The position numbers and the translations under genes were made by a program. 64,000 bases of DNA from an uncultured Pelagibacteraceae bacterium (lineage in GTDB: Bacteria; Pseudomonadota; Alphaproteobacteria; Pelagibacterales; AG-422-B15): NCBI GenBank assembly GCA_902554325.1, contig CACDOH010000002.1:72275-136274 (forward strand). Direction: 5' to 3'. The notes under the pieces were generated by a model, which was not told the origin of the DNA, made no database searches, and saw only the letters and a program-made list of their open reading frames with translations. Positions 19,313-42,306 of the stretch are shown one piece after another. Position 1 is the first letter of the stretch; every line of letters starts with the position of its first letter.

Positions 19313-20764
19313 ATGGAAAATAGCAATCATTTTAATGTCATTGTAATTGGTGCTGGAATATCAGGAATTGGTGCTGGATATTATTTAAAAAAGAATTGTC
19401 CAAACAAATCATTTTGCATAATCGAGGGAAGAGAGAATATAGGCGGTACATGGGATTTGTTTAAGTATCCAGGAATAAGATCAGATTCTGATATGTTCAC
19501 ACTTGGCTACGCTTTCAAACCTTGGAAAGAGCAAAAAACAATTGCAAACGGACCTTCAATTTTAAATTACTTAGAAGAAACTGTTGAAGAAAATAACCTA
19601 CGCGAAAAAATAAAGTTTAGTCATAAAGTCTTAAGTGCTAATTGGAATTCAGGCAGTCAAAAATGGGAGGTAAGAGCTGCTCATCATGAGCAAGAAATAC
19701 TGTTAACGGCTAATTTTCTTTTCATGGGAACAGGATATTATAATTATGATGAGGGATATACGCCTGATTTTAATGATCTAAATAAGTATGAAGGTAAATT
19801 AATACATCCTCAGAAGTGGCCTGAAGATTATGATTATACAGATAAAAAAATGGTTGTAATTGGCAGTGGCGCAACAGCAGCTACGATAATTCCTGAATTG
19901 TCTAAAAAAGCGAAACATGTCACGATGTTGCAGCGCTCACCGACATACTATTTCCCAAGTCCAGACGAAGATAGATTTGCAAATTTCTTAAAAAAAATAC
20001 TGCCATCAAAAATGTCTTATACAGTTGTAAGGTTACGGAATGTATTTTTCCAGCAACTTCTGTATAGAATTTGTCGATCATACCCTAAATATGTAAAACG
20101 AAAACTCATAGATGGAGTAAAAAAATTATTACCTAATCACGATATCTCAAAAAATTTTACTCCACGATATTATCCGTGGGAGCAAAGAATGTGCCTTATT
20201 CCAAATGGCGATTTATTTGAGTCTATACGAGAAAATAGGGCATCAGTAATTACAGATCAGATTGACCGGTTTACATCCAAGGGTATTACACTAAAATCAG
20301 GACAAAATATTGAAGCTGATGTTGTAGTAACTGCAACAGGATTAAATCTACAATCCTTTGGTGGCGTACAAGTGCATATTGATGGAAAGTTGGTTGAGCC
20401 CTCTGAAACCATGACTTATAAAAGTATGATGTTCAGTGGAATTCCAAATTTTGTAAATTCTTTTGGTTATATTAATGCATCTTGGACGTTGAAAGCAGAT
20501 TTAACCTGTGAATATGCTTGTCGTTTAATAAATTATCTTGATAAAAATAACTACAGTCATTGTGTGCCAAGGGTTCCTGTGGATGTGAAAGCTGAAAAAG
20601 ATTGGCTAGCAACCGAGTTTTCATCAGGATACATTCATAGAGCTATACATTTATTTCCCCAACAAGGCAGCAGGTCACCATGGGTAAACACACAAAATTA
20701 TTTTAAAGATTTTTTTGGTATTAAATTTGGTCGTCTGAATGATGACTCTATCCACTTTTCCTAA
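19313..20764 (+). CDS. flavin-dependent Baeyer-Villiger-type monooxygenase (EthA-like)
   Basis: VIGAGISGIGAG; GGTWDLFKYPGIRSDS; BVMO fingerprint YEGKLIHPQKWP (FxGxxxHxxxWP with Y in place of F); second Rossmann VIGSGATA. Confidence 0.8.
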   Translation: MENSNHFNVIVIGAGISGIGAGYYLKKNCPNKSFCIIEGRENIGGTWDLFKYPGIRSDSDMFTLGYAFKPWKEQKTIANGPSILNYLEETVEENNLREKIKFSHKVLSANWNSGSQKWEVRAAHHEQEILLTANFLFMGTGYYNYDEGYTPDFNDLNKYEGKLIHPQKWPEDYDYTDKKMVVIGSGATAATIIPELSKKAKHVTMLQRSPTYYFPSPDEDRFANFLKKILPSKMSYTVVRLRNVFFQQLLYRICRSYPKYVKRKLIDGVKKLLPNHDISKNFTPRYYPWEQRMCLIPNGDLFESIRENRASVITDQIDRFTSKGITLKSGQNIEADVVVTATGLNLQSFGGVQVHIDGKLVEPSETMTYKSMMFSGIPNFVNSFGYINASWTLKADLTCEYACRLINYLDKNNYSHCVPRVPVDVKAEKDWLATEFSSGYIHRAIHLFPQQGSRSPWVNTQNYFKDFFGIKFGRLNDDSIHFS

Positions 20765-22404
20765 GCGTCAGCATTTTTAGCCATTTCTCTTAGCTCATAC
20801 TTCAATATCTTTCCAGTTGAAGTTTTGGGTAGCTCAGTAAATATAACTTTTTTAGGACACTTAAAGCCAGCAAGAGTTTCTTTACAAAAAGATATTATGT
20901 CTTTCTCTGTTACATTGTCGTCCTGACTTTTTAGTTCAATAAAAGCACAGGGAGTTTCGCCCCATTTTTCATCAGGTTTGGCAACTACTGCAACAAAAAG
21001 AACTGATGGGTGTTTGTACAATGTATTTTCTATCTCAACTGAAGATACATTTTCTCCGCCAGATATAATGATATCTTTACTTCTATCTTTGATCTGGACA
21101 TATCCATTAGGATGCATCACTGCTAAATCTCCAGAATGAAACCAGCCGCCTGACATTGACTTATCAGTTTCTTCTTTATTTTTAAGGTAACCTTTCATAA
21201 CACAATTACCTTTAATCATAATTTCACCAATTTCTTCACCATCATTTTTGACCTCTTTCATGGTCTCTGGATTCATAACCGTAAGGCCTTCCATCATTGG
21301 AAATTTTACACCTTGCATTGATCTCAATTTTGATTGTTCCTCAACTGATAATTCATTCCATTCATCTTGCCATGCACACATCGATACATGACCATAAGTT
21401 TCAGTTAATCCATACACGTGCGTTACATCAAAGCCCATTTGTTGAACTGCTTCAAGGGTGGCTGCAGGTGGTGGGGCTCCGGCGGTAACAACATTAACTT
21501 TATGAGAATAGTCTCTTTTTTCATCATCAGTCGCTTGAGCTATAAAGTTTAATACAATAGGCGCCCCTCCGAAATGCGTGACTTTGTGATCAGCTATTGC
21601 ATCAAAAAGATTTTTTGCAGATACATATCGTAAGCATACACTTGTTCCTGCTAGGGCAGTTAATGTGTATGGATTACCCCAGCCATTACAATGAAACATC
21701 GGGACTACCCACATGTAAGTTGGATGCATTGCCATGCTAAATGCTGTAACTGAACCTAATGCCATTAAATATGAACCTCGATGATGGTAAACTACACCTT
21801 TAGGAAGACCTGTGGTTCCCGATGTATAATTAAGAGCAAGTGAATCCCATTCATCTTCTGGCAAACTCCATTCAAAATTTTCGTCACCAGTTTTAAGGAA
21901 CTCTTCATAATTTAGACTTCCAAGATTTTCTCCGGCACCTTCAGGATGATTAGCAAGCTCATCATCAATATCTATAACCAAAGGTTTAGTTTTTATTTTG
22001 TTTAACACTTCCTTCATGGTAGGTGAGAGTTCATTATCAGTGATTACTACTTTTGCTTCTCCGTGCTCAAGAATATAAGAAATGGTATCTACATCTAATC
22101 TAATATTAATTGTATTAATTATCGCTCCAATCATAGGAATTCCATAATGAGCTTCGTAAATTTCTGGAGTATTAAAACATAAGACTGCAACTGTATCACC
22201 TTTACCAACACCTTTTTTTGTGAGAGCGCTAGCTAGCTGCTTACTTCTCTTAAAAGTATCTGACCATGTATACTTTTTAGAACCATGAATAATTGATAGT
22301 CTATTTGGATAAACTTCAGCCGATCTTTGTAAAAAACTTAATGGAGAAAGTGGCGTGAAGTTAGCGTGATTCTTGTCTAAGTTAGTATTATACATATCAG
22401 TCAT
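20761..22404 (-). CDS. AMP-forming acyl-CoA synthetase (short/medium-chain, AAE7-like)
   Basis: YTSGTTGLPKGV, GWFHSGDLA, DRSKDIIISGGENV, PKTSTGKI. The start overlaps the fhs stop by 1 nt (TAATG). Confidence 0.85.
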   Translation of the reverse strand: MTDMYNTNLDKNHANFTPLSPLSFLQRSAEVYPNRLSIIHGSKKYTWSDTFKRSKQLASALTKKGVGKGDTVAVLCFNTPEIYEAHYGIPMIGAIINTINIRLDVDTISYILEHGEAKVVITDNELSPTMKEVLNKIKTKPLVIDIDDELANHPEGAGENLGSLNYEEFLKTGDENFEWSLPEDEWDSLALNYTSGTTGLPKGVVYHHRGSYLMALGSVTAFSMAMHPTYMWVVPMFHCNGWGNPYTLTALAGTSVCLRYVSAKNLFDAIADHKVTHFGGAPIVLNFIAQATDDEKRDYSHKVNVVTAGAPPPAATLEAVQQMGFDVTHVYGLTETYGHVSMCAWQDEWNELSVEEQSKLRSMQGVKFPMMEGLTVMNPETMKEVKNDGEEIGEIMIKGNCVMKGYLKNKEETDKSMSGGWFHSGDLAVMHPNGYVQIKDRSKDIIISGGENVSSVEIENTLYKHPSVLFVAVVAKPDEKWGETPCAFIELKSQDDNVTEKDIISFCKETLAGFKCPKKVIFTELPKTSTGKILKYELREMAKNADA

Positions 22405-24071
22405 TAAAATAATCCTTCAATTTCACCATCATCATTTAAGTGTATCGCATTTGCAGCGGGAATTCTAGGCAGACCAGGCATGGTCATTATTTTATCACAC
22501 ACCACTACAAGAAATTCAGCTCCAGCTGCTAATCGTATTTCTCTAATTGGAACTATGTGATCCTTAGGAGCCCCTCGCAAATTCGGATCTGTTGAAAAAC
22601 TGTATTGAGTTTTTGCAATACAAATAGGGTAATGACCATAGTTTTCCTGCAGCTCATCGAATTGTGTTCTTATTTTTTGATCTGCAATAATATCTTTTGC
22701 TCCATAAATATCTTGTGCAATTTTCTGAACTTTATCCCACAGTTTCATTTCATTAGGGTAAAGGTGCTTTATTTTTGGATTTTCCTCAGTTGTTACATCT
22801 ACAATGTGTTGCGCCAAGGTTTCTGCCCCAGCTCCACCATTGCTCCAGTGAGTACAATTAAACGATTTAATGCCAAGCTCATCACAGCATTCACTGATTA
22901 TTGAGAGTTCATTATCAGTATCGGTTATAAAATGATTAATTGCTATAGACACAGGAACTCCATATTTTTTCATATTCGAAATATGTTGTTGCAAGTTCGA
23001 TAGACCTTTCCTCAAGGCGTCTAGATTTTCATTTTTCAGTTCCTTTTTATCCATGCCGCCATGCATTTTTAAAGCCCTTACAGTAGCTACAATGACTATT
23101 GCAGAAGGATTTAAATTTCCTTTTCTGCATTTTATATCTAGAAATTTTTCTGCGCCAAGATCCGCTCCAAATCCAGCTTCTGTTACTACATAATCGCTTA
23201 GCTTAAGAGCAGTTTGAGTTGCTATAAGTGAATTGCAGCCATGCGCAATGTTAGCAAAAGGACCGCCATGAATGATTGCAGGATTTTCTTCTAACGTTTG
23301 AACTAGGTTTGGGAGAAAAGCATCTTTAAGTAGAGTCGTCATTGCTCCATCTGCATTTACGTCACGAGCTTTGATTTCTTTTTTATCTCGTGTGTAACCA
23401 ATGATAATATTGCCAAGTCTTTTTTGCAGATCACTTAGACTTGTTGATAAACAAAAGATCGCCATTACCTCAGAAGCAACTGTAATATCAAACTTATCTT
23501 CTCTGGGAAAACCGTTTGCTATGCCTCCAAGATTTATATTTGTATTTCGCAAAGCTCGGTCATTTAAATCTACAACTCGACCCCAAACTATTCGCCTTGT
23601 ATCTATATTTAGATCATTTCCCCAATAGATGTGATTGTCGATCATAGAAGCAAGCAGGTTATGAGCAGATGTGATTGCATGAAAATCACCTGTAAAATGA
23701 AGATTAATCTTATCCATTGGGACCACTTGAGCATAGCCACCTCCAGCAGCTCCACCTTTAACGCCAAAACAGGGACCTAAGCTTGGTTCTCTGAGGCATA
23801 CCAATGATTGTTTGCCTATTTTATTGAGTGCATCGTTCAAACCCACTGAAGTAGTAGTTTTACCCTCACCCGCAGGAGTTGGTGAAATGGCTGTAACTAA
23901 TATCAATTTTCCATTTTTGTTTTGATTTTTCAATGTGTTGGTATCAATTTTTGCAATATGATGGCCAAACTTTTGAAGGCTATCTTCCTCAAGTTTTAGT
24001 TTTGAGGCTACCTTTTCAATTGGTACCATTTGATTTTTTCTTGCTATTTCAATGTCTGATAGAACATCCAT
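22404..24071 (-). CDS. fhs: formate--tetrahydrofolate ligase
   Basis: [34 protein letters not shown]; full-length at 555 aa. Confidence 0.95.
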
Positions 24072-24265
24072 TACTTCACCTCTTAAATTTAAGTCTAGAC
24101 AACTTAAGAATTTTAATTCGTGGAGTCTACAAAAATGTATTGTAATACACCTAAATTTTAAATAGATTTCTCACTAAGGAGACTCAAAGAACGTTGCAAA
24201 ATTAAGCCAAGCAGCGTTACTTAATAATCGCGTGGCTTAAGCGTATACACTTAGAATTTTTAATT

Positions 24266-25006
24266 ATGGGAAATGTGAATTTTTCATTAGAGGTGACTAC
24301 GCGGACCAACTTGTCTGAGCTACCCAAGCTTAATGATATATATGTAACATTCTTACCGGGTACAAGTTACAAGGACGTCATTGAACAGACAAAAGCTTTA
24401 TCAAAATCAGGTTTTAATGCAATTCCTCACTTTCCAGCTAGATCAATAACTGATTTAGACATGCTGAAAGATTATGTAGGTCAAGTTAAAGAAGCTGGCG
24501 TTAAGCAAGTATTAATAATTGGAGGCGATAGAGATATTCTTGGCAATTATCACTGTTCACTTCAATTAATTGAAACAGGTTTATTCGATGGAATGAAAAT
24601 TGGTATAGCTGGTCATCCCGAGGGATCTCCGAATATGAGCGATCAAGCAATAGATGAAGCAATGAAATCTAAATCTTCATTTGCAGATTATATTGTTACG
24701 CAATGGACACAGGATACAAATGCATTATCTGAATTTGTTAACGAAGCTCCATTGCCCGTTCATGTCGGCCTTGCAGGACCAGCCTCAATGAAAACGTTAA
24801 TAAAATTTGCTGGTTTCGTAGGATTAAAGAATACACTTAGCTTTGCTAAAAAAAATGCATCGAAAATTTTTGATTTATTGACGGTACAAACACCGCATGA
24901 TGTAATTAAAGAATTAAAAGGTAATGTAGATAATTTTCACATTTATGCATTTGGTGGAATAAAAAAAACAAGCGAATGGCTACAAAAGGAGAACTACTAT
25001 GTCTAA
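24266..25006 (+). CDS. methylenetetrahydrofolate reductase-like protein (short form)
   Basis: SLEV..YVTFLPG, PHFPARSI, LIIGGDR, GIAGHPEG, YIVTQ and VGLAGPAS follow the MTHFR fold blocks. Only 246 aa. Overlaps the next gene by 8 nt. Confidence 0.65.
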   Translation: MGNVNFSLEVTTRTNLSELPKLNDIYVTFLPGTSYKDVIEQTKALSKSGFNAIPHFPARSITDLDMLKDYVGQVKEAGVKQVLIIGGDRDILGNYHCSLQLIETGLFDGMKIGIAGHPEGSPNMSDQAIDEAMKSKSSFADYIVTQWTQDTNALSEFVNEAPLPVHVGLAGPASMKTLIKFAGFVGLKNTLSFAKKNASKIFDLLTVQTPHDVIKELKGNVDNFHIYAFGGIKKTSEWLQKENYYV

Positions 25007-26342
25007 AAAATTAGAACACAATACTACAGTTGATCAAAGTGATCGTCATGTGCCTTATAACTTACGTCAAAGTGGACCAACAAAAGTTGAAATGCTGATT
25101 TCTACAAGAGTCAGAAAATCACCTTATTGGCATAAATCAATGGAAGCTGGATGCTGGAGAGCAACAGTTTACAATCGTATTTATCATCCCAGGGGATATG
25201 TAAAGCCAGAAGATGGTGGAGCAATGGTTGAATACGAAGCAATTAAAAACCACGTCACTATGTGGAATGTTGCTGTTGAAAGACAGATATGTGTAAAAGG
25301 ACCTGATGCAGAGAAATTTACAGACTATGTTATTACTAGAGATGCAACAAAAATATCACCTTTAAGAGCAAGATATGTAATTCTCTGTAACTATAAGGGT
25401 GGAGTTTTAAACGATCCGATTCTTTTGAGAATTTCTAAAGATGAGTTTTGGTTTAGTTTATCAGACTCAGATATTGGTCTATATCTTCAAGGTGTGAATG
25501 CTGACAAAAGATTTAATGTAGAAATTGATGAAATTGATGCATGTCCAGTTCAAATTCAAGGACCAAAAGCTGCCGCATTAATGAAAGATTTAGTTGGTGA
25601 TCAAGTAGATCTCGACAACATTCCATTTTATGGACTAGCAGAAGTTACTGTTGGTGGTCGCAGCTGTGTTATCTCGCAGACAGGTTTCTCTGGAGAGTCT
25701 GGATACGAAATCTATTTGAGAGATGCGACTCTTTATGCTGATGATATGTGGGATGCAGTTTTGGAAGCTGGCAAAAAGCATAACTTAATGGTAATTGCCC
25801 CGGCCCACCACAGAAGAATTCAAGCTGGAATTCTATCATGGGGTCAGGATATGGATCATGAGCATAATCCATTCCAGTGCAACTTAGGATACCAAGTATC
25901 ATTATCTGGAAAAGGAGAATGGGAAAAGAAAGGTGACTATGTTGGAAAACAAGCTCTTGAGAAGATGAAAGCTGATCTTGCTGACGGTCACAAGCCTTAT
26001 AAATTACAACTAGTTGGTTTTGAACTAGAAGGTAAACCAATTGAAGAATATGCGCCTGACTTCTGGCTCGTATCTCCTGGCGATGGTGGAGATCCATGTG
26101 GTTTCATTACATCTCCTTGGTACCATCCAGAAAAAGGAAAAAACATAGCAATGGGTTATGTCCCTTTTGACGGCTCTTTGAATTCCAATGGATTCCCAAA
26201 ATGGGAGCTTGGAAAGAAATATAAAATTCACCTACCAGATATTTATGCAGACACACCGGGTGAACCAGTAGATGCAGTGACTGTGGATGTGCCGTTCACT
26301 GAGTCATTCAATGCAAATACAAGGGAAGTAGTTAAAGGTTAA
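24999..26342 (+). CDS. GcvT-fold aminomethyltransferase-family protein (THF-dependent demethylase candidate), 447 aa
   Basis: MWNVAVERQICVKGPDAEKF, GGVLNDPILLRISKDEFWFSLSDSD, CPVQIQGPKA and SQTGFSGESGYEIY are GcvT/DmdA-family blocks. Confidence 0.8.
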   Translation: MSKKLEHNTTVDQSDRHVPYNLRQSGPTKVEMLISTRVRKSPYWHKSMEAGCWRATVYNRIYHPRGYVKPEDGGAMVEYEAIKNHVTMWNVAVERQICVKGPDAEKFTDYVITRDATKISPLRARYVILCNYKGGVLNDPILLRISKDEFWFSLSDSDIGLYLQGVNADKRFNVEIDEIDACPVQIQGPKAAALMKDLVGDQVDLDNIPFYGLAEVTVGGRSCVISQTGFSGESGYEIYLRDATLYADDMWDAVLEAGKKHNLMVIAPAHHRRIQAGILSWGQDMDHEHNPFQCNLGYQVSLSGKGEWEKKGDYVGKQALEKMKADLADGHKPYKLQLVGFELEGKPIEEYAPDFWLVSPGDGGDPCGFITSPWYHPEKGKNIAMGYVPFDGSLNSNGFPKWELGKKYKIHLPDIYADTPGEPVDAVTVDVPFTESFNANTREVVKG

Positions 26343-26354
26343 ATTTAAATAATT

Positions 26355-26381
26355 CTGGCGTCTTAAATAAGAAGACGCCGG
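26355..26381. terminator. bidirectional hairpin between convergent genes
   Basis: CTGGCGTCTT-AAATAA-GAAGACGCCGG: 10-bp stem with one G-U. GC-rich island in an AT-rich spacer. Confidence 0.5.
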
Positions 26382-26386
26382 AGTGA

Positions 26387-26881
26387 TTAAGATTTGTGCT
26401 GGACGTATAGCTGGTGATAGCACACTTTGCCGTTCTTCTCGATAAAGTCCTGATGATATTCCTCTGCAGGGTAGAACTTAACAGCTTCTCTTAATTCTGT
26501 GGCTACCTTTCCTTGATGTTCACCTGAGTCATCAATTTGTTTTATTTTTTCTTCAGCAATAGTTTTTTCATTTTGTGAATTATAAAATATTACAGACTTA
26601 TATTGCTCCCCAATATCCGGACCTTGTCGGTTAAATTGAGTGGGATCATGTATAAAAAAAAATTTATCTAGAAGTGCTTCATATGTAGTTTCTGAGTCAT
26701 CATATTCAATTTCAACAACTTCAATATGACCTGTGGTTCCTGAACAAATAGTCTCATACGTAGGATTATCAGTGTGACCACCTGCATATCCTGATATAAC
26801 TTTTTTGACACCTGGGATTGCTTCAAAGAGCACTTCAACCCCCCAAAAACATCCGGCTCCTAAAACTAATTTTGCATTCAT
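26387..26881 (-). CDS. msrA: peptide-methionine (S)-S-oxide reductase
   Basis: GAGCFWGVE active site, GYAGG, HDPTQ.NRQG.D.G.QY. Confidence 0.9.
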   Translation of the reverse strand: MNAKLVLGAGCFWGVEVLFEAIPGVKKVISGYAGGHTDNPTYETICSGTTGHIEVVEIEYDDSETTYEALLDKFFFIHDPTQFNRQGPDIGEQYKSVIFYNSQNEKTIAEEKIKQIDDSGEHQGKVATELREAVKFYPAEEYHQDFIEKNGKVCYHQLYVQHKS

Positions 26882-26956
26882 TACTTAACATAAAAGTTTT
26901 TTTATATATGTTAAAGATCAAAATTAATAATATTCCAACTAATATTCATACTTGCA

Positions 26957-28093
26957 ATGAAAAAAGAGATAAACATTGGCAAACTTTCTAGTGTGAAGAT
27001 TTGGATAACCAATGCTCATAAAAGTAAGAACAATTGGTCAAATACTAAAAAATTTATCTTTATAAAAATAACAACGACTGATGGAGTTGAAGGGTGGGGA
27101 GAAGCATTCTCCATTCATCTCAGAGAAAAGGCAATTGCAACAATAATAATTGAATTGTTTAAAGAAATATCAGAAATTAAAAACTTATCATTAAACTCAT
27201 TTTATAATAAAATATTTTTTCTTAGAGATGACCATGGAGGATTAGATTTTAGTTCTGCTACAAGTGCAATTGAAATTGCACTATGGGACATAGCTGGCAA
27301 ATTGAAAAATCTCCCTTTGAATTGCTTATTAACAGATAATCCTAAGCCTGATGTATCTATTTATGCTACGTGTTGGAGTGATCTAAAAAAAGATGAGGAA
27401 AATTATTTACATCAAGTAGAAAAATATTTTGAAAAAAAATATGGAGGTATTAAAATTTACCCATTATTTGAAAACACTTCAAACTCAGTTAAGTTTGTCG
27501 ATCGAGTAAGAAAAATAGTGGGAATGGAATACCCTCTCATGCTAGACTTAGCCATACCTAAAGATTTAGATCAAACAAAGACCTTCTTAAAAGAGGTATC
27601 TTTTTTAAAGCCTTATTGGATTGAAGAGCCGGTTGATGGAGAAAATATTAGCCTACTTACCGAAATTAAAAATGATTTTGATATGAGAGTTGTGACTGGC
27701 GAAAAACAGAGTGGTCTCCCTCATTTTAAAGAAATTATTAAAAGAGATGCGGCAGATATACTTAATCCTGACATTTCAGGAATAGGAGGAATTATTGATA
27801 TGTTTTACGTTTCAAAGGAAGCTTTAAATAATAATATCTCTATTTCTCCCCATTGTTGGAATTCTATGTCTGTATCAGCATCCGCAATGCTTCATGTTTG
27901 TTCAAGTATCCCAAATTCCGAAAAGGCAGAAATATTTCCTGATTATATTGAATTCTCAAAAGAGTTTTGTGAGCTGTCTTTTAATATCGTAGAGGATAGA
28001 GCAATACTTAATCAGTCTGCTGGACTTGGAATGGTAATTCATGAAGATATTTTGTCAAAGTTAAGCACTTATAGGATGGATGAAAAAAATTAA
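26957..28093 (+). CDS. enolase superfamily (mandelate racemase / muconate lactonizing enzyme family) protein
   Basis: EIALWDIAGK; metal ligands in LMLDLA, WIEEP and TGEKQ; ADILNPDISGIGG; HCWNS. Confidence 0.75.
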   Translation: MKKEINIGKLSSVKIWITNAHKSKNNWSNTKKFIFIKITTTDGVEGWGEAFSIHLREKAIATIIIELFKEISEIKNLSLNSFYNKIFFLRDDHGGLDFSSATSAIEIALWDIAGKLKNLPLNCLLTDNPKPDVSIYATCWSDLKKDEENYLHQVEKYFEKKYGGIKIYPLFENTSNSVKFVDRVRKIVGMEYPLMLDLAIPKDLDQTKTFLKEVSFLKPYWIEEPVDGENISLLTEIKNDFDMRVVTGEKQSGLPHFKEIIKRDAADILNPDISGIGGIIDMFYVSKEALNNNISISPHCWNSMSVSASAMLHVCSSIPNSEKAEIFPDYIEFSKEFCELSFNIVEDRAILNQSAGLGMVIHEDILSKLSTYRMDEKN

Positions 28094-29604
28094 TGACTGA
28101 AGCAAACTATCTTTTTGATAAAATCTTTAAATCTAATGAAACTAAGGAAAAAATATTTTTAATTAATAAGTGTAAAAAATTAAGCTACATAGAATTTCAT
28201 GAGGTAGTTAATAAAATCTCTAATTATCTAATAGAAATTAATTTGTCTCCAGGTGACCGCGTTGCAGTCCAAGCAGAAAAAAATATAATTCAATTAGCAT
28301 TATATGTCGCTACTATCAAAGCTGGTGGTGTATATTTACCGCTCAATACAGGATATACTCTCAATGAGTTAGAATATTTTTTTGATGATGCAAAACCTAA
28401 GGTGATTGTTGTTGATGATAAAATTCAAAGCAAAATAGATAGCATTGCAAGCACTTCATCAGCTTCAATCCTAACATTAAATTTAGATGAAAGTGGCTCT
28501 CTTACCGAAAGAATTAAGAACCACCCAACAAAGTTTCACGCTATTGCTCGAAGTGAAAATGACTTAGCAGCTATTTTGTATACATCGGGAACTACTGGAA
28601 AATCAAAAGGCGCGATGTTATCGCATAGAAATTTAGTTTCTAACTCAGAAGTTTTAAGAGATTTTTGGAAATTTACAGAGAGTGACGTGCTCTTGCATAT
28701 GCTACCGATCTATCACACACACGGTCTCTTTGTCGCTTGTAATCTATTGGCAATTGTTGGTGGATCAATGATTTTTTTAGAAAAATTTGATGTTAAAGAA
28801 GCTATGTTCTGGATGAAAGATTCAACTTCAATGATGGGAGTGCCTACTTTTTACACAAGACTGCTAGCAAGTGAAGAGTTAAATGCTGAACGTACTAAAC
28901 ATATGCGACTATTTATTTCAGGTTCTGCACCCCTGTTATCTGAAACTCATATAGATTTTGAAAAACGAACTGGTAAAAAAATTCTTGAGAGATATGGAAT
29001 GACAGAAACTAATATGAATATTTCAAATCCATATGACGGAGAGAGAAAAGCGGGAACGGTTGGCATTCCGCTTCCTGGCATTGAAATTAGGGTAGTTAAT
29101 GAGGAGGGAAAAGAAGTAGAAAATGGAAAAATAGGTACCATTGAACTCAAGGGTGAAAATGTTTTTCAAGGATATTGGAAAATGAAAGAAAAAACAGAAG
29201 AGGCATTTAGGGAAGATGGCTTTTTTATAACAGGCGATCTCGCACAAAAGGACGAAAACGGTTATTTTACTATTGTTGGAAGAGATAAGGATATGATTAT
29301 AAGTGGTGGGCTAAATGTTTACCCTAAAGAAATAGAAGACGTGTTAAATGAATTGCCAAATGTATTAGAGTCTGCCGTTTTTGGATTACAACATGCTGAT
29401 TTTGGTGAGGCAGTTGTTGCAGCTGTTGTCGTAAATGATGATAAAAAAGATGAAAATCAAATAATTGAATTTACAAAAGACAAAATTGCTAAATATAAGC
29501 AGCCAAAAAAAATTATTTTCATGGATAGCTTGCCAAGGAATTCAATGGGCAAAGTTCAAAAAAATTTATTACGGAAAAATAATCAGAATTTATTTAAGGG
29601 TTAG
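28093..29604 (+). CDS. malonyl-CoA synthetase-like AMP-binding enzyme (MatB-like)
   Basis: SPGDRVAVQAEKN, GGVYLPLNTGYTLNELEYFFDDAKPKV, YTSGTTGKSKGA, GRDKDMIISGGLNVYP, PRNSMGKVQK. N-terminal blocks resemble my recollection of rhizobial MatB. The start overlaps the upstream stop by 1 nt. Confidence 0.75.
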   Translation: MTEANYLFDKIFKSNETKEKIFLINKCKKLSYIEFHEVVNKISNYLIEINLSPGDRVAVQAEKNIIQLALYVATIKAGGVYLPLNTGYTLNELEYFFDDAKPKVIVVDDKIQSKIDSIASTSSASILTLNLDESGSLTERIKNHPTKFHAIARSENDLAAILYTSGTTGKSKGAMLSHRNLVSNSEVLRDFWKFTESDVLLHMLPIYHTHGLFVACNLLAIVGGSMIFLEKFDVKEAMFWMKDSTSMMGVPTFYTRLLASEELNAERTKHMRLFISGSAPLLSETHIDFEKRTGKKILERYGMTETNMNISNPYDGERKAGTVGIPLPGIEIRVVNEEGKEVENGKIGTIELKGENVFQGYWKMKEKTEEAFREDGFFITGDLAQKDENGYFTIVGRDKDMIISGGLNVYPKEIEDVLNELPNVLESAVFGLQHADFGEAVVAAVVVNDDKKDENQIIEFTKDKIAKYKQPKKIIFMDSLPRNSMGKVQKNLLRKNNQNLFKG

Positions 29605-39228: not shown

Positions 39229-40143
39229 GTGAACACTTCTCGCCACCCATATCATTATAGCATTAGCTTTGCATTACTGATTGCAGCTGGATTATGGGGA
39301 TTATTTTGGATACCCCAAAGAGCACTCGAGGCTGGTGGCTTAACTGGCGGCTGGGCCACTATTTCACAAATGATTATTCCCTTTTTAATTCTGCTTCCAG
39401 TTGCTATGTGGAGAAAATATAAAGGTAATTCATTTGGTCTTGATTATCCAATTATAGGACTTTTATTTGGCGCTGGAATTGCATGTTACGCCAATAGCTT
39501 TCTATTAACGGACGTAGTGAGAGCTTTAATCCTATTTTATATTACTCCAGTCTGGACAACTATTTTTGAAATGATATTCCTTAGGCAGGTTCCACGCTAC
39601 TATAGATACATCACTCTTATTCTCGCTTTATCTGGAGTTTGGATTGTCTTTGGTCAGGATGGATTTATTCCAATTCCTCAAAACTCTGGTGACTGGATAG
39701 CACTATTAGGCGGTATATTTATAGCAGCTTCAGCAGTTCGAATGGAAGTTAAAAAACCAGAGGGCATCTTTCCAATTCTTTTTTCATTCTTTTTTTATGG
39801 TGGCATATTTACTTTAGTGCAAGCTTACTTTCTCAGAGATGTAATGGGCTCTGCGCCATCTTTAGATTCTTGGCTTACAATGATGCCATGGCTCTTATTA
39901 ATAGCCATCTTATTTCATCTACCAACTAATGTAGTTATACTAGGAGCACCCAGTAGAATTGGGGCAGGATTATTCTCTATAATCATTCTTTTTGAAATTG
40001 TAGTTGGTACGTTTAGCGCTGCGATATTAACTGATGAACTTTTTGGTTGGCGAGAGATATTAGGAAGCTCATTAATAATCTTGGCAGGATTAACAGAGAT
40101 TATTTTTGCCTCAAATGTAGCTATAAAAAAGAATAACTTATAA
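39229..40143 (+). CDS. DMT (EamA-like) superfamily transporter
   Basis: GTG start; about 10 TM helices; two-repeat EamA-like organisation. Confidence 0.7.
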   Translation: MNTSRHPYHYSISFALLIAAGLWGLFWIPQRALEAGGLTGGWATISQMIIPFLILLPVAMWRKYKGNSFGLDYPIIGLLFGAGIACYANSFLLTDVVRALILFYITPVWTTIFEMIFLRQVPRYYRYITLILALSGVWIVFGQDGFIPIPQNSGDWIALLGGIFIAASAVRMEVKKPEGIFPILFSFFFYGGIFTLVQAYFLRDVMGSAPSLDSWLTMMPWLLLIAILFHLPTNVVILGAPSRIGAGLFSIIILFEIVVGTFSAAILTDELFGWREILGSSLIILAGLTEIIFASNVAIKKNNL

Positions 40144-41061
40144 TTTGTTCAGTAATTTTATGTGCTCAACAGTTGTGCCACAGCAACCTCCGATAATTTG
40201 CGCTCCTGCATCTTTCCATTTTTTGGCTTCGACTAAATAATCATTTGGCTGAATTACATTGCTCATGTCATAGTGTGGAAAATTAAATACAGCTACTTCT
40301 GGATAAGCCATTATAGGAAGATTGTATACTTCCTTGAGTTCTTTTATACTTTCTTCTATTACACTAATATCACAATGCATTATGCCAACCGCATCCAATT
40401 TATGGTGTTTAACGTTGCTGATCATTTTTTTAAAACTATACTCATAGTCAGTCGTAAGAGCTATCAAGCCATCTTTGTTTCTAGAAGAAAACCCAGCCCA
40501 TACTGGTAAACCAACTTTGCTTGCTGAATCAAAAATTATATCAATTCGATCTGGCCTATACATAAGCTCCAATAAAATAAAATCACATCCGTTATCCGCT
40601 AAAAAAAATGCCAGCTCATCAAAAGATTTTTGAAAATATTCTGGGGTAAGTTTCTTAATATATTTATCTTTTTCTTCTTGCGATCTAAAAGCATCTTCAT
40701 ACGGTATTTGGTGAGATAAGGATCCTGCCACAAGTACATCATCTCGACCACATTCTTCTCTTGCTTGGATAGCTGCATTTATTGCAGATAGATTAATTTC
40801 TTTAAATTTATCTTCAACTCCAGCCACTTCTAATATCATTCGATTTGAAGCATAGGTATTTGTTGTAATTATTTTTGCTCCAGCATTGATGTAGTCTTTA
40901 TGGATTTGTTTTAGAATATCAAACTCAAGTGAGGCTGTTGCGCACCAAGAGTTATCCATTTTAATACCTCTGTTTTCAAGTTCGGATCCAGTGGCTCCAT
41001 CAAGCAATATAGTTTCCCCTGAACGGAGAACTTCTAAAAATTTTTTATACCTTTGATTCAT
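40138..41061 (-). CDS. homocysteine S-methyltransferase family protein (BHMT/MmuM-like)
   Basis: LLDGATGSELE N-terminal block, TNTYASN, and the C-terminal zinc-site motif GGCCGTTVEHI. Confidence 0.8.
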   Translation of the reverse strand: MNQRYKKFLEVLRSGETILLDGATGSELENRGIKMDNSWCATASLEFDILKQIHKDYINAGAKIITTNTYASNRMILEVAGVEDKFKEINLSAINAAIQAREECGRDDVLVAGSLSHQIPYEDAFRSQEEKDKYIKKLTPEYFQKSFDELAFFLADNGCDFILLELMYRPDRIDIIFDSASKVGLPVWAGFSSRNKDGLIALTTDYEYSFKKMISNVKHHKLDAVGIMHCDISVIEESIKELKEVYNLPIMAYPEVAVFNFPHYDMSNVIQPNDYLVEAKKWKDAGAQIIGGCCGTTVEHIKLLNKL

Positions 41062-41169
41062 AACTTGTTAATTATCATTTAAAGCTTAATTAAGTAAATA
41101 TATTATTGAAAATGATTTACTTTATCTCATTTTTTAGTTTATAAGATCGGATCAATTTGGAGATTGCTT

Positions 41170-42306
41170 ATGTCAAAAGGGATTATTTATACACCCAGAG
41201 TTAGAAAGTCACCCTTCTTTGAGGAAACTATAAAATCTGGAGCAACTAATTTCACTACTTATAATCATATGACGATGCCTGTGGGATACACTACACCTGA
41301 GCAGGAATATCATTCATTAATTAATGATGTGACGTTATGGGATGTTGCAGCGGAAAGACAAGTTGAGGTTGTTGGGGAAGATGCAGCTAAATTTGTCCAA
41401 TATATGACGCCGAGAAACTTATCTACATTTAAAGATGGTTTTTGTAGATACGCATTTATGACAGATGAAAATGGTGGAATTATCAATGATCCATTAATAT
41501 TAAAATTCAATGATAACAAATTTTGGTTAAGTATTGCTGATTCCGACGCAATCCTTTGGTGTAAAGGCGTCGCTCTATCTGGAAAATTTAATGTTAAAAT
41601 TTCAGAACCTGAGGCATGTCCTTTATCTTTGCAAGGGCCAAGATCAAAAGAGCTTATTAGAAAAGTAACAAATGATGATCCGATTATAATGGGACTAAAA
41701 TACTACCAATTTATCGAGACTAATCTTTTTGGAATAGATATTATTATTGCTAGAAGTGGCTGGAGCAATCAGTTTGGTTATGAAATATACATCACTCGAG
41801 AAATTGATGCCCCAACACTTTGGAACTCTTTAATGGATGCTGGTAAAGAATTTAGGATTGTTCCTAGTTGCCCAAATCAAATAGATAGAATTGAAGCAGG
41901 CATGATTTCACATCAAGGTGACACATCCCTAGAGGAAAACCCTTTAGAGCTCAATCTCCCCAAGTTTTATGATCTTGATCAGGAGGCTGATTTTGTAGGT
42001 AAAGAAGCCCTTCTCAAAATAAGAGAGGAAGGTATTAAGAAACAATTCACTGGATTTAAAATTTCAGGAAAAAAAATTGGTTATAATATGGCTAGAATTC
42101 CTCTGTTTAATAAAAATGGGGAACAGCAAGGATTTGTAACTAGTACAATCTATAGCCCTAATTTTGGATGCAATATTGCCCTCGGATACATTGATATTAA
42201 TCTAACCAACTCTGAAGATGTATTTAATATTAATCATGATGGCGAAGAAAGAGAAGTTGAGGTTGTTCCATTACCATTTAGTTCAAGACTAGAAAAAATG
42301 GAATAA
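41170..42306 (+). CDS. DmdA-like GcvT-fold THF-dependent demethylase candidate
   Basis: PRVRKSPFFE, TTYNHMTMP, LWDVAAERQVEVVGEDA, GGIINDPLILKFNDNKFWLSIADSD, ARSGWSNQFGYEIY and CPNQIDRIEAGMISHQGD parallel my recollection of DmdA blocks. ATG 41170 has GGAG 7 nt upstream; the ORF-track TTG 41164 does not. Confidence 0.8.
   Translation: MSKGIIYTPRVRKSPFFEETIKSGATNFTTYNHMTMPVGYTTPEQEYHSLINDVTLWDVAAERQVEVVGEDAAKFVQYMTPRNLSTFKDGFCRYAFMTDENGGIINDPLILKFNDNKFWLSIADSDAILWCKGVALSGKFNVKISEPEACPLSLQGPRSKELIRKVTNDDPIIMGLKYYQFIETNLFGIDIIIARSGWSNQFGYEIYITREIDAPTLWNSLMDAGKEFRIVPSCPNQIDRIEAGMISHQGDTSLEENPLELNLPKFYDLDQEADFVGKEALLKIREEGIKKQFTGFKISGKKIGYNMARIPLFNKNGEQQGFVTSTIYSPNFGCNIALGYIDINLTNSEDVFNINHDGEEREVEVVPLPFSSRLEKME

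Follow-up and report, generated by a model that had tools for sequence, protein, structure and literature searches.

A SAR11 gene module that probably couples tetrahydrofolate-dependent glycine betaine demethylation to methyl-group oxidation

The sequence analysed here, referred to as the window, is a 64,000-nucleotide (nt) stretch from the genome of an uncultured SAR11 (Pelagibacterales) bacterium, and the coordinates of the locus described below are given in window numbering. The locus consists of four genes in two divergently oriented pairs (Table 1). The reverse strand carries fhs, for a formate-tetrahydrofolate ligase, and a gene for an AMP-binding acyl-CoA synthetase (hereafter the ligase). 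The forward strand carries a gene for a short protein resembling methylenetetrahydrofolate reductase (MTHFR) and a gene for a GcvT-fold protein of the aminomethyltransferase family, here called AMT. The combined evidence from these genes and their homologues in other bacteria indicates that AMT, the short MTHFR and Fhs probably form a module in which a tetrahydrofolate (THF)-dependent glycine betaine demethylase is joined to a methyl-THF oxidase and to Fhs.

All four open reading frames (ORFs), their divergent arrangement and their overlaps were found where an earlier, sequence-only reading of this DNA had placed them. The fhs and ligase genes have one base in common (TAATG, 22402-22406), and the MTHFR-like gene and AMT overlap by 8 nt. 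Because overlaps are common in the window, being found in 14 of its 41 same-strand neighbour pairs, with a median gap of 3 nt, they are weak evidence of functional coupling; as proof of such coupling they were dropped, being the norm in this genome. The spacer that separates the two pairs is the largest divergent spacer of the window. AMT is flanked by the MTHFR-like gene, fhs, msrA and an enolase-superfamily gene. Fhs scored above the curated NF010030 cut-off, and its PF01268 alignment covered positions 2-556 of 556.

Synteny conservation is stronger evidence of association than the gene overlaps. AMT was present in 174 of the 201 sampled Pelagibacterales genomes, with no match in four genera, and the MTHFR-like gene adjoined it in every one of the 20 SAR11 loci examined, which belong to two families. 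The four-gene layout, for which the sequence-only reading had named a lack of synteny in any related genome as refuting, is kept in 6/6 relatives with enough flanking sequence, from three genera of the window's family (f1), and a seventh f1 locus ends inside fhs. In all f1 loci fhs is divergent from the MTHFR/AMT pair. Among the 13 Pelagibacteraceae (f2) loci examined, none showed the four-gene layout; fhs lies 1-7 kb from the pair in three of them and elsewhere in the others. The locus is probably the form that a conserved SAR11 module for the harvesting of methyl groups takes in this family.

The four proteins differ in how well they are conserved. Identity between the two SAR11 families was 83-87% for AMT, 51-57% for the MTHFR-like protein, 61-65% for Fhs and about 60% (59-62%) for the ligase. 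AMT is 65-72% identical between SAR11 and the non-SAR11 members of the alignment, Actinobacteria and Acidiferrobacterales among them, and the genes next to it are only 51-65% identical between the SAR11 families; AMT is thus under very strong constraint, and this suggests its lateral spread.

AMT and the MTHFR-like gene are the predicted orthologues of SAR11_1265 and SAR11_1264, respectively, the same gene pair in 'Candidatus Pelagibacter ubique' HTCC1062 (Sun et al. 2011, PMC3160333). That study treats SAR11_1264 as a putative metF whose product is believed to oxidise methyl-THF, and SAR11_1265 as a gcvT-like aminomethyltransferase without an assigned substrate, related to dmdA, with an abundance in ocean metagenomes like that of recA and similar to that of dmdA; removing the second methyl during the breakdown of dimethylsulfoniopropionate (DMSP) was speculated for it (Sun et al. 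2011, PMC3160333). The mRNAs of both genes drop 5-10-fold together in stationary phase of HTCC1062 (Smith et al. 2016, PMC5069961). Close homologues of AMT, from Candidatus Pelagibacter, are annotated solely as 'aminomethyltransferase family protein', and no GcvT-fold betaine:THF methyltransferase was found reported in the literature searched. The pair itself has been known since 2011; the new part is the proposed, well-supported assignment of glycine betaine as the substrate.

By sequence and predicted fold, AMT belongs to the DmdA-like THF methyltransferases and is neither GcvT nor DmdA. It scored 233 bits against the DmdA model NF009133 (cut-off 410), to which Pelagibacter DmdA proteins match with 540-640 bits, and it was likewise below both cut-offs for GcvT, with 153 bits against NF001567 (cut-off 300) and 127 bits against TIGR00528 (cut-off 236). 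Scores against the LigM and DesA models were 37.6 bits (cut-off 580) and 47.3 bits (cut-off 800), respectively. The best sequence match of AMT in the PDB was Pelagibacter DmdA (3tfh, E 9e-44), followed by GcvT. An AlphaFold2 (AF2) model of AMT, built from an alignment and with a mean predicted local distance difference test (pLDDT) value of 73, showed a three-domain fold of the GcvT type, THF-binding core included, that also matched 3tfh best (template-modelling, TM, score of 0.84 on the target, E 4e-28), and the fold match to LigM was weaker (TM 0.56-0.59).

In a tree of 64 sequences the AMT orthologues formed a tight clade (support 100/99) within a DmdA-like superclade, separate from Pelagibacter DmdA. 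The GcvT references in this tree were the top PF01571 matches, of ~370 aa, from five genomes, and these five sequences split off as a clade of their own, set apart by a branch with a length of 2.3 changes per site. Neither gcvH nor gcvP was found in any AMT context examined. A role for AMT as the glycine-cleavage T protein is ruled out by the sub-cut-off scores, the tree position and the absence of gcvH and gcvP neighbours. The sequence-only reading had taken the GcvT-fold protein for something other than a bona fide T protein and had proposed a phylogeny as a check; the scores below both GcvT cut-offs and the distance in the tree agree with it, AMT having failed to cluster with true GcvT.

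The only solved relative of the short MTHFR is the 288-aa MTHFR of Sphingobium lignivorans SYK-6 (S6MTHFR; 7XG9/7XLF), which matched residues 19-239 with an E of 4e-32. S6MTHFR oxidises CH3-THF, hardly reacts with NADH and defines the type 4 MTHFR group, whose members accompany the THF-dependent demethylases LigM, DesA, CmuAB and Dmt (Yu et al. 2025, PMC11868366). The survey in that paper was seeded only from homologues of LigM, DesA, CmuAB and Dmt, and SAR11 and DmdA are unmentioned in it (PMC11868366). Of the S6MTHFR positions, Leu48-Pro49, Asp107, Gln175, Phe215, Tyr267 and Phe269-Gly-Gly are kept in the window protein, Arg77 is retained beside a changed Arg78, and Glu21 falls outside the aligned stretch. 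Leu48-Pro49, an NADH-blocking motif in loop beta2-alpha3 that Arg78 holds in place in the type 4 enzyme, is present in all SAR11 MTHFR-like sequences. Phe269-Gly-Gly, also NADH-blocking, belongs to the Tyr-Pro268-Phe-Gly-Gly-Leu stretch of loop beta8-alpha11, and Phe215 and Cys219 to helix alpha8. Membership of the type 4 group is likely but not clean, because Arg78, Cys219 and Pro268 are changed; the Pelagibacter protein has Thr at the Pro268 position, and Leu272 is Ile in the SAR11 comparison. A single-sequence AF2 model of the short MTHFR had a pLDDT of 56 and was not used. The suggestion that methyl-THF is recycled through this protein gains from its SYK-6 type, now known from enzymology published in 2025 to oxidise methyl-THF beside demethylases.

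A further observation concerns the catalytic Asp107 (Asp120 of E. coli MetF), which is replaced by Ser in the MTHFR-like proteins of Pelagibacter and of genus g10 (L045, L047, L052), and is kept as Asp in f1. Either the alignment is shifted here or a residue reported as essential has truly changed.

The short MTHFR is the sole MTHFR-family match in the window genome, which is 79% complete, and neither MetH nor MetE was found in it at that level of completeness. Complete genomes of the same genus contain one short MetE-like gene and no MetH-length frame. With no MetH or MetE found, methyl-THF would have no obvious sink besides oxidation.

The neighbourhoods of AMT in other bacteria point to its substrate. 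Outside the Pelagibacterales, AMT-clade orthologues (64-83% identity) were found in 13 of the 401 sampled alphaproteobacterial genomes, with a sister grade at 50-53% identity in five more; by name, the clade also occurs in Algihabitans, Kiloniellales, Acidiferrobacterales, a Planctomycetota metagenome-assembled genome, Saxibacter and a Nocardioidaceae strain. Twenty non-SAR11 AMT loci were compared, ten of them unannotated and searched by tblastn with known proteins, and ten with pre-computed Pfam annotation. Crude ORF calls in high-GC loci left some ORFs without a Pfam match, and the tblastn searches and pre-annotated contigs were relied on instead.

A gene of the dimethylglycine dehydrogenase (DMGDH) type adjoins AMT in 9/20 of these loci, sarcosine oxidase (Sox) genes are nearby in seven and an MTHFR gene is nearby in five. 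Orthologues of the DMGDH encoded in the window, 57-77% identical to it, adjoin AMT in L083, L088, L090, L091, L092 and L097, and Pfam-called DMGDH-type genes do so in L098, L100 and L151; in L094 a cut match of 61% identity lies ~6.5 kb from AMT. A DMGDH-ETF block was also found ~5 kb from the MTHFR/AMT pair in a Pelagibacter locus (L144). Representative gene orders are listed in Table 1, together with the genes of the window, which holds the same set of functions as the AMT contexts elsewhere. In five genomes with such AMT clusters nothing scored above the curated cut-offs for BHMT or GbcA, which leaves AMT as the candidate for the step from betaine to dimethylglycine. The sequence-only reading had guessed a methylated carboxylate whose identity was not obvious; the guess of a methylated carboxylate stands, and the second part can be revised, since the contexts in other bacteria point to glycine betaine.

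Another onium osmolyte, such as proline betaine, hydroxyproline betaine, dimethylsulfonioacetate, a carnitine-derived betaine or choline, could be the methyl donor instead, although we consider this unlikely. The BCCT and OpuAC transporters carry many betaines, and where BHMT-like genes are neighbours, glycine betaine could be handled by them already. Upstream of AMT, ornithine-cyclodeaminase-family genes are found in L099, L101 and L148, and in L086 at a distance of ~4 kb, and enolase-superfamily genes are found nearby in the window and in L088. However, the commonest immediate neighbours of AMT are DMGDH-type, sarcosine oxidase and choline-to-betaine genes, which lay out the glycine betaine route in pathway order, and the very uniform clade (64-72% identity across phyla) suggests a single substrate.

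Table 1. Features of the window and gene orders around AMT orthologues outside SAR11 (<> marks a change of orientation)
Feature	Position or locus	Strand	Remarks
Acyl-CoA synthetase, AMP-binding, 547 aa	20761-22404	-	PRK08162 864 bits (cut-off 677)
Fhs, formate-THF ligase, 555 aa	22404-24071	-	NF010030 881 bits (cut-off 652), PF01268 863 bits
Divergent spacer, 194 nt	24072-24265	none	between fhs and the MTHFR-like gene; presumably both promoters
Conserved structured leader	about 24187-24243	+	inside the 24072-24265 spacer, ~30 nt before the MTHFR start
Short MTHFR-like gene, 246 aa	24266-25006	+	weak PF02219 match, 30 bits
AMT, GcvT-fold, 447 aa	24999-26342	+	GCV_T and GCV_T_C domains
Enolase-superfamily gene	26957-28093		downstream of AMT, past msrA
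proVWX	34.8-39.2 kb of window		
BHMT-like gene	40138-41061		
DMGDH-family enzyme, 811 aa	45237-47672	+	full-length match to rat/human DMGDH, E 1e-186
soxBDAG	50-55 kb of window		
DUF5981-MTHFR <> BCCT-AMT-DMGDH-SoxB-SoxD-SoxA-SoxG	L151		one array, MTHFR divergent
ETFab-DMGDH-IclR-IclR-MTHFR <> AMT-BCCT-betA-aldehyde dehydrogenase	L100 (Nocardioidaceae)		betA passes TIGR01810
ETFab-DMGDH-IclR-AMT-MTHFR-FTHFS-FTCD_C	L098 (Saxibacter)		FTCD_C = cyclohydrolase
SoxBDAG-DUF5981-MTHFR-AraC/DJ-1 regulator-AMT	L150		BCCT ~3 kb further on
BHMT-like-AMT-GMC oxidoreductase-OpuAC-ABC transporter	L149		
AMT-BCCT-ADH-SoxGADB-serine dehydratase	L099		

The enolase-superfamily gene of the window and a MatB-like CoA ligase gene (together 26957-29604) keep their position in all f1 genomes. 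In an unrelated alphaproteobacterium, too, AMT-DMGDH is followed by an enolase-superfamily gene (L088:11794-12933). The enolase-superfamily gene may have a betaine racemase or epimerase-type function.

A Rieske/Ring_hydroxyl_A gene is divergent from the pair in Pelagibacter (L144:6983-8179), and another lies near AMT in L102 (16185-17396). The best model for both was GbcA, with 124-128 bits against a cut-off of 670, and they may encode a second, oxygen-dependent demethylase of a related betaine. The placement of these GbcA-like genes would also fit a reading in which AMT is not a methyltransferase and acts as a folate partner that captures formaldehyde or an iminium from an oxidative demethylase to give methylene-THF, as the GcvT-like domains of Tdm, DMGDH and sarcosine oxidase do, solved enzymes of that kind being among the matches. 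We regard this reading as highly improbable: the Rieske gene is absent from the f1 locus and from most other contexts, the nearest characterised relative of AMT is a true methyltransferase, and the dedicated MTHFR found beside AMT in Alphaproteobacteria, Actinobacteria and others makes sense only with methyl-THF being formed; nor was any MetH found in SAR11 to use methyl-THF made by reduction.

For the glycine betaine module, we infer the substrate, the methyl-THF product and the direction of MTHFR and Fhs from the gene identities, family placement, conservation and contexts given above, in the following route. A transporter would import betaine, or choline would be oxidised to betaine. AMT would move a methyl group from an onium donor, most likely glycine betaine, to N5 of THF, giving dimethylglycine and 5-methyl-THF, and the co-transcribed short MTHFR would convert 5-methyl-THF to 5,10-methylene-THF. 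FolD, encoded elsewhere, would carry methylene-THF to 10-formyl-THF, from which Fhs would release formate with formation of ATP, and a formate dehydrogenase would oxidise formate to CO2. Dimethylglycine would be converted to sarcosine by the DMGDH-type enzyme, with sarcosine oxidase acting next, both being encoded 19-30 kb downstream in the window; DMGDH, together with ETF, and then sarcosine oxidase would take off the other two methyl groups as methylene-THF. The term 'self-contained pathway', used for the locus in the sequence-only reading, was too strong, because FolD, formate dehydrogenase and the downstream demethylases lie elsewhere.

Several points weigh against this assignment. We know of no case in which a quaternary ammonium group passes a methyl to THF without a corrinoid, and chemically such a donor is more difficult than the sulfonium of DMSP. 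No report of a characterised SAR11_1265, SAR11_0248 or THF-dependent betaine demethylase was found in the literature searched. The short MTHFR departs from the type 4 motif by Arg78 to Ser, Cys219 to Val and Pro268 to Ala, and the actinobacterial MTHFRs encoded beside AMT (L098:10484-11341, L100:7924-8787) show no type 4 motifs. BHMT-like genes are near AMT in 6/20 non-SAR11 loci and are also present in SAR11, so the betaine step may already be covered and AMT might take another betaine; the ornithine-cyclodeaminase-family and enolase-superfamily genes near some orthologues fit substrates of the proline betaine type. In addition, the genus-level distribution of AMT in Pelagibacterales equals that of the DmdA-model matches, which fits a DMSP-linked role too.

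The actinobacterial MTHFRs were rejected as type 4 enzymes for their lack of the motifs. In two other loci (L150:6072-7636 and L151:5397-6967) a DUF5981 (PF12225) gene accompanies that of the MTHFR as its partner. It seems that AMT takes up whatever type of MTHFR is available in the host.

The fourth gene of the locus, the ligase, is of the DmdB type and has its one-to-one orthologue in the dmdA operon of Pelagibacter. An order-wide search gave one match per genome, the Pelagibacter match being 59-62% identical and located ~0.8 kb from dmdA. In the reverse search the window ligase was the best match of the Pelagibacter ligase in its genome (646 bits, 59%), the next match having 167 bits. Against the Ruegeria-type DmdB model NF005426 the window ligase scored 326 bits, below the cut-off of 822. 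In the one Pelagibacter locus laid out, the block order is dmdC-type dehydrogenase, ligase, hydrolase and dmdA. DmdB activity of the Pelagibacter ligase has reportedly been measured. The Pelagibacter block corresponds to what Sun et al. 2011 (PMC3160333) show as the dmdA-mhpC-fadD-mmgC unit, and a figure legend in that paper also points to this activity.

On contig C16 of the window genome (5267-7342), the genes that flank the Pelagibacter dmdA-mhpC-dmdB-dmdC site are adjacent and the block is gone; from the dmdA block the f1 family retains the ligase orthologue alone, beside fhs. The best homologues of DmdA and DmdC in the window genome are 39% and 37% identical, respectively. A 380-aa DmdA-like gene (41164-42306), divergent from the BHMT-like gene (40138-41061), was dropped as a true DmdA for its 39% identity to Pelagibacter DmdA.

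The ligase adjoins the module only in the f1 family of SAR11, and no acyl-CoA ligase was found near the demethylase in 25 non-SAR11 loci (20 of the AMT clade and five of the sister grade). It is probably not part of the module, the association being incidental and family-specific, and it may serve a separate function in the activation of short-chain acids or of methylmercaptopropionate (MMPA), with regulation shared with the module. The CoA-ligase step that the sequence-only reading had built into the pathway is not retained, given that the gene is a neighbour in f1 only, belongs to the dmdA operon in Pelagibacter and has no counterpart in those 25 loci; the analogy with DmdB drawn there was right about the identity of the ligase and wrong about its membership in this pathway.

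The ligase would be a true partner if AMT acted in DMSP catabolism, either as a second DMSP demethylase or, as Sun et al. 2011 speculated, by stripping MMPA of its last methyl group, which gives 3-mercaptopropionate. AMT lies in the DmdA-like superclade with DmdA as its best structural match, and AMT and the DmdA-model matches share genera, including the same two genomes of genus g9. A metagenome abundance similar to that of dmdA (Sun et al. 2011) would fit as well, although a common marine distribution is expected of any osmolyte-catabolic gene. In f1 the DmdB orthologue has the same orientation as fhs and diverges from the pair, whereas in Pelagibacter the ligase is in the dmdA operon, far from AMT. 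Genes like dmdB, dmdC or dmdD were found in 0/20 non-SAR11 AMT loci, which have choline, betaine, dimethylglycine and sarcosine genes instead, and AMT is beside betA and an aldehyde dehydrogenase gene in actinobacteria of non-marine type. We judge a role in DMSP catabolism to be distinctly unlikely.

In the f1 family, a conserved structured leader precedes the MTHFR-like gene. All f1 loci contain, in this order, an invariant TTGCAAAATTAAGCCAAGCA, a variable segment and an invariant CGCGTGGCTTAAGCG, the invariant blocks having 20 nt and 15 nt. RNAalifold folded the leader into an enclosing stem of 11 pairs, with compensatory changes in seven of the 11, and the leader loop TTAAGCCA is complementary to a downstream TGGCTTAA, a pairing that could form a pseudoknot. 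The leader is single-copy in the window genome and is absent upstream of the Pelagibacter pair. A search of positions 20000-27500 of the window gave no Rfam match at E values up to 1; the leader is thus not a catalogued riboswitch, and it appears to be a regulatory RNA of the MTHFR/AMT operon that is particular to this family.

In its boldest form, the proposal is that AMT is the founding corrinoid-independent glycine betaine:THF N-methyltransferase and that the f1 operon is under a new, pseudoknotted, metabolite-sensing leader RNA, which we put forward tentatively, as somewhat short of an even chance. At present BHMT is held responsible for the first demethylation step of betaine in SAR11; it consumes one homocysteine per betaine, which is hard to reconcile with the oxidation of betaine methyl groups to CO2 that has been observed. 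If the proposal is correct, SAR11 and many other bacteria would oxidise the first betaine methyl group for energy without spending homocysteine or oxygen, the flux from betaine methyl to CO2 would be explained, and a core SAR11 gene whose function has been open since 2011 would be given one. The partnership of demethylases with type 4 MTHFRs would also extend from lignin degraders to the dominant bacteria of the ocean, and AMT would provide a new marker gene for betaine turnover in metagenomes.

Compared with the Pelagibacter locus of the HTCC1062 type, the window has fhs and the DmdB-type ligase where Pelagibacter has the divergent GbcA-like Rieske gene, and the conserved leader stands before the pair in f1 and not in Pelagibacter.

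DmdA of Pelagibacter ubique (3TFH) is the closest characterised relative of AMT by sequence and fold, and the likeness would extend to the reaction, which for AMT is proposed, by analogy, to be a THF-dependent methyl transfer from an onium zwitterion. In alignments, AMT and DmdA have an 'NDP' motif in common where Thermotoga GcvT has 'DDL'. The two differ in that AMT is ~31% identical to Pelagibacter DmdA, falls in a separate clade, has other gene contexts and exceeds DmdA by ~80 residues, with roughly 35 invariant residues extending its N-terminus. This extension (residues 1-35, window 24999-25103) has no DmdA counterpart and is near-invariant from SAR11 to Actinobacteria; conserved N-terminal residues include R16, V18, P19, N21-Q24, T28, R37, R39 and K40. 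Its AlphaFold pLDDT is <40; possible roles are those of a lid, of a segment that binds a partner or of a contributor to the substrate site.

AMT is not a member of the LigM or DesA families by model scores, and no aromatic-catabolic genes were found in the AMT contexts. The ligM-metF-ligH cluster of SYK-6 nevertheless follows the same logic, from a GcvT-fold demethylase through methyl-THF and an NADH-blind MTHFR to a formyl-THF enzyme, and the analogy with it drawn in the sequence-only reading holds, the set of demethylase, MTHFR and Fhs recurring in the actinobacterium Saxibacter (L098). The window MTHFR is 42 residues shorter than that of SYK-6 and differs from it at Arg78, Cys219 and Pro268.

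Among the known enzymes for glycine betaine, BHMT, the Rieske monooxygenase GbcAB/BmoAB and the corrinoid-dependent MtgB have the outcome proposed for AMT, the conversion of glycine betaine to dimethylglycine. AMT and these betaine demethylases occupy the same cluster position, beside transporters, DMGDH and sarcosine oxidase. AMT differs from them in its predicted fold and putative acceptor, which would be THF instead of homocysteine, O2 or a corrinoid protein.

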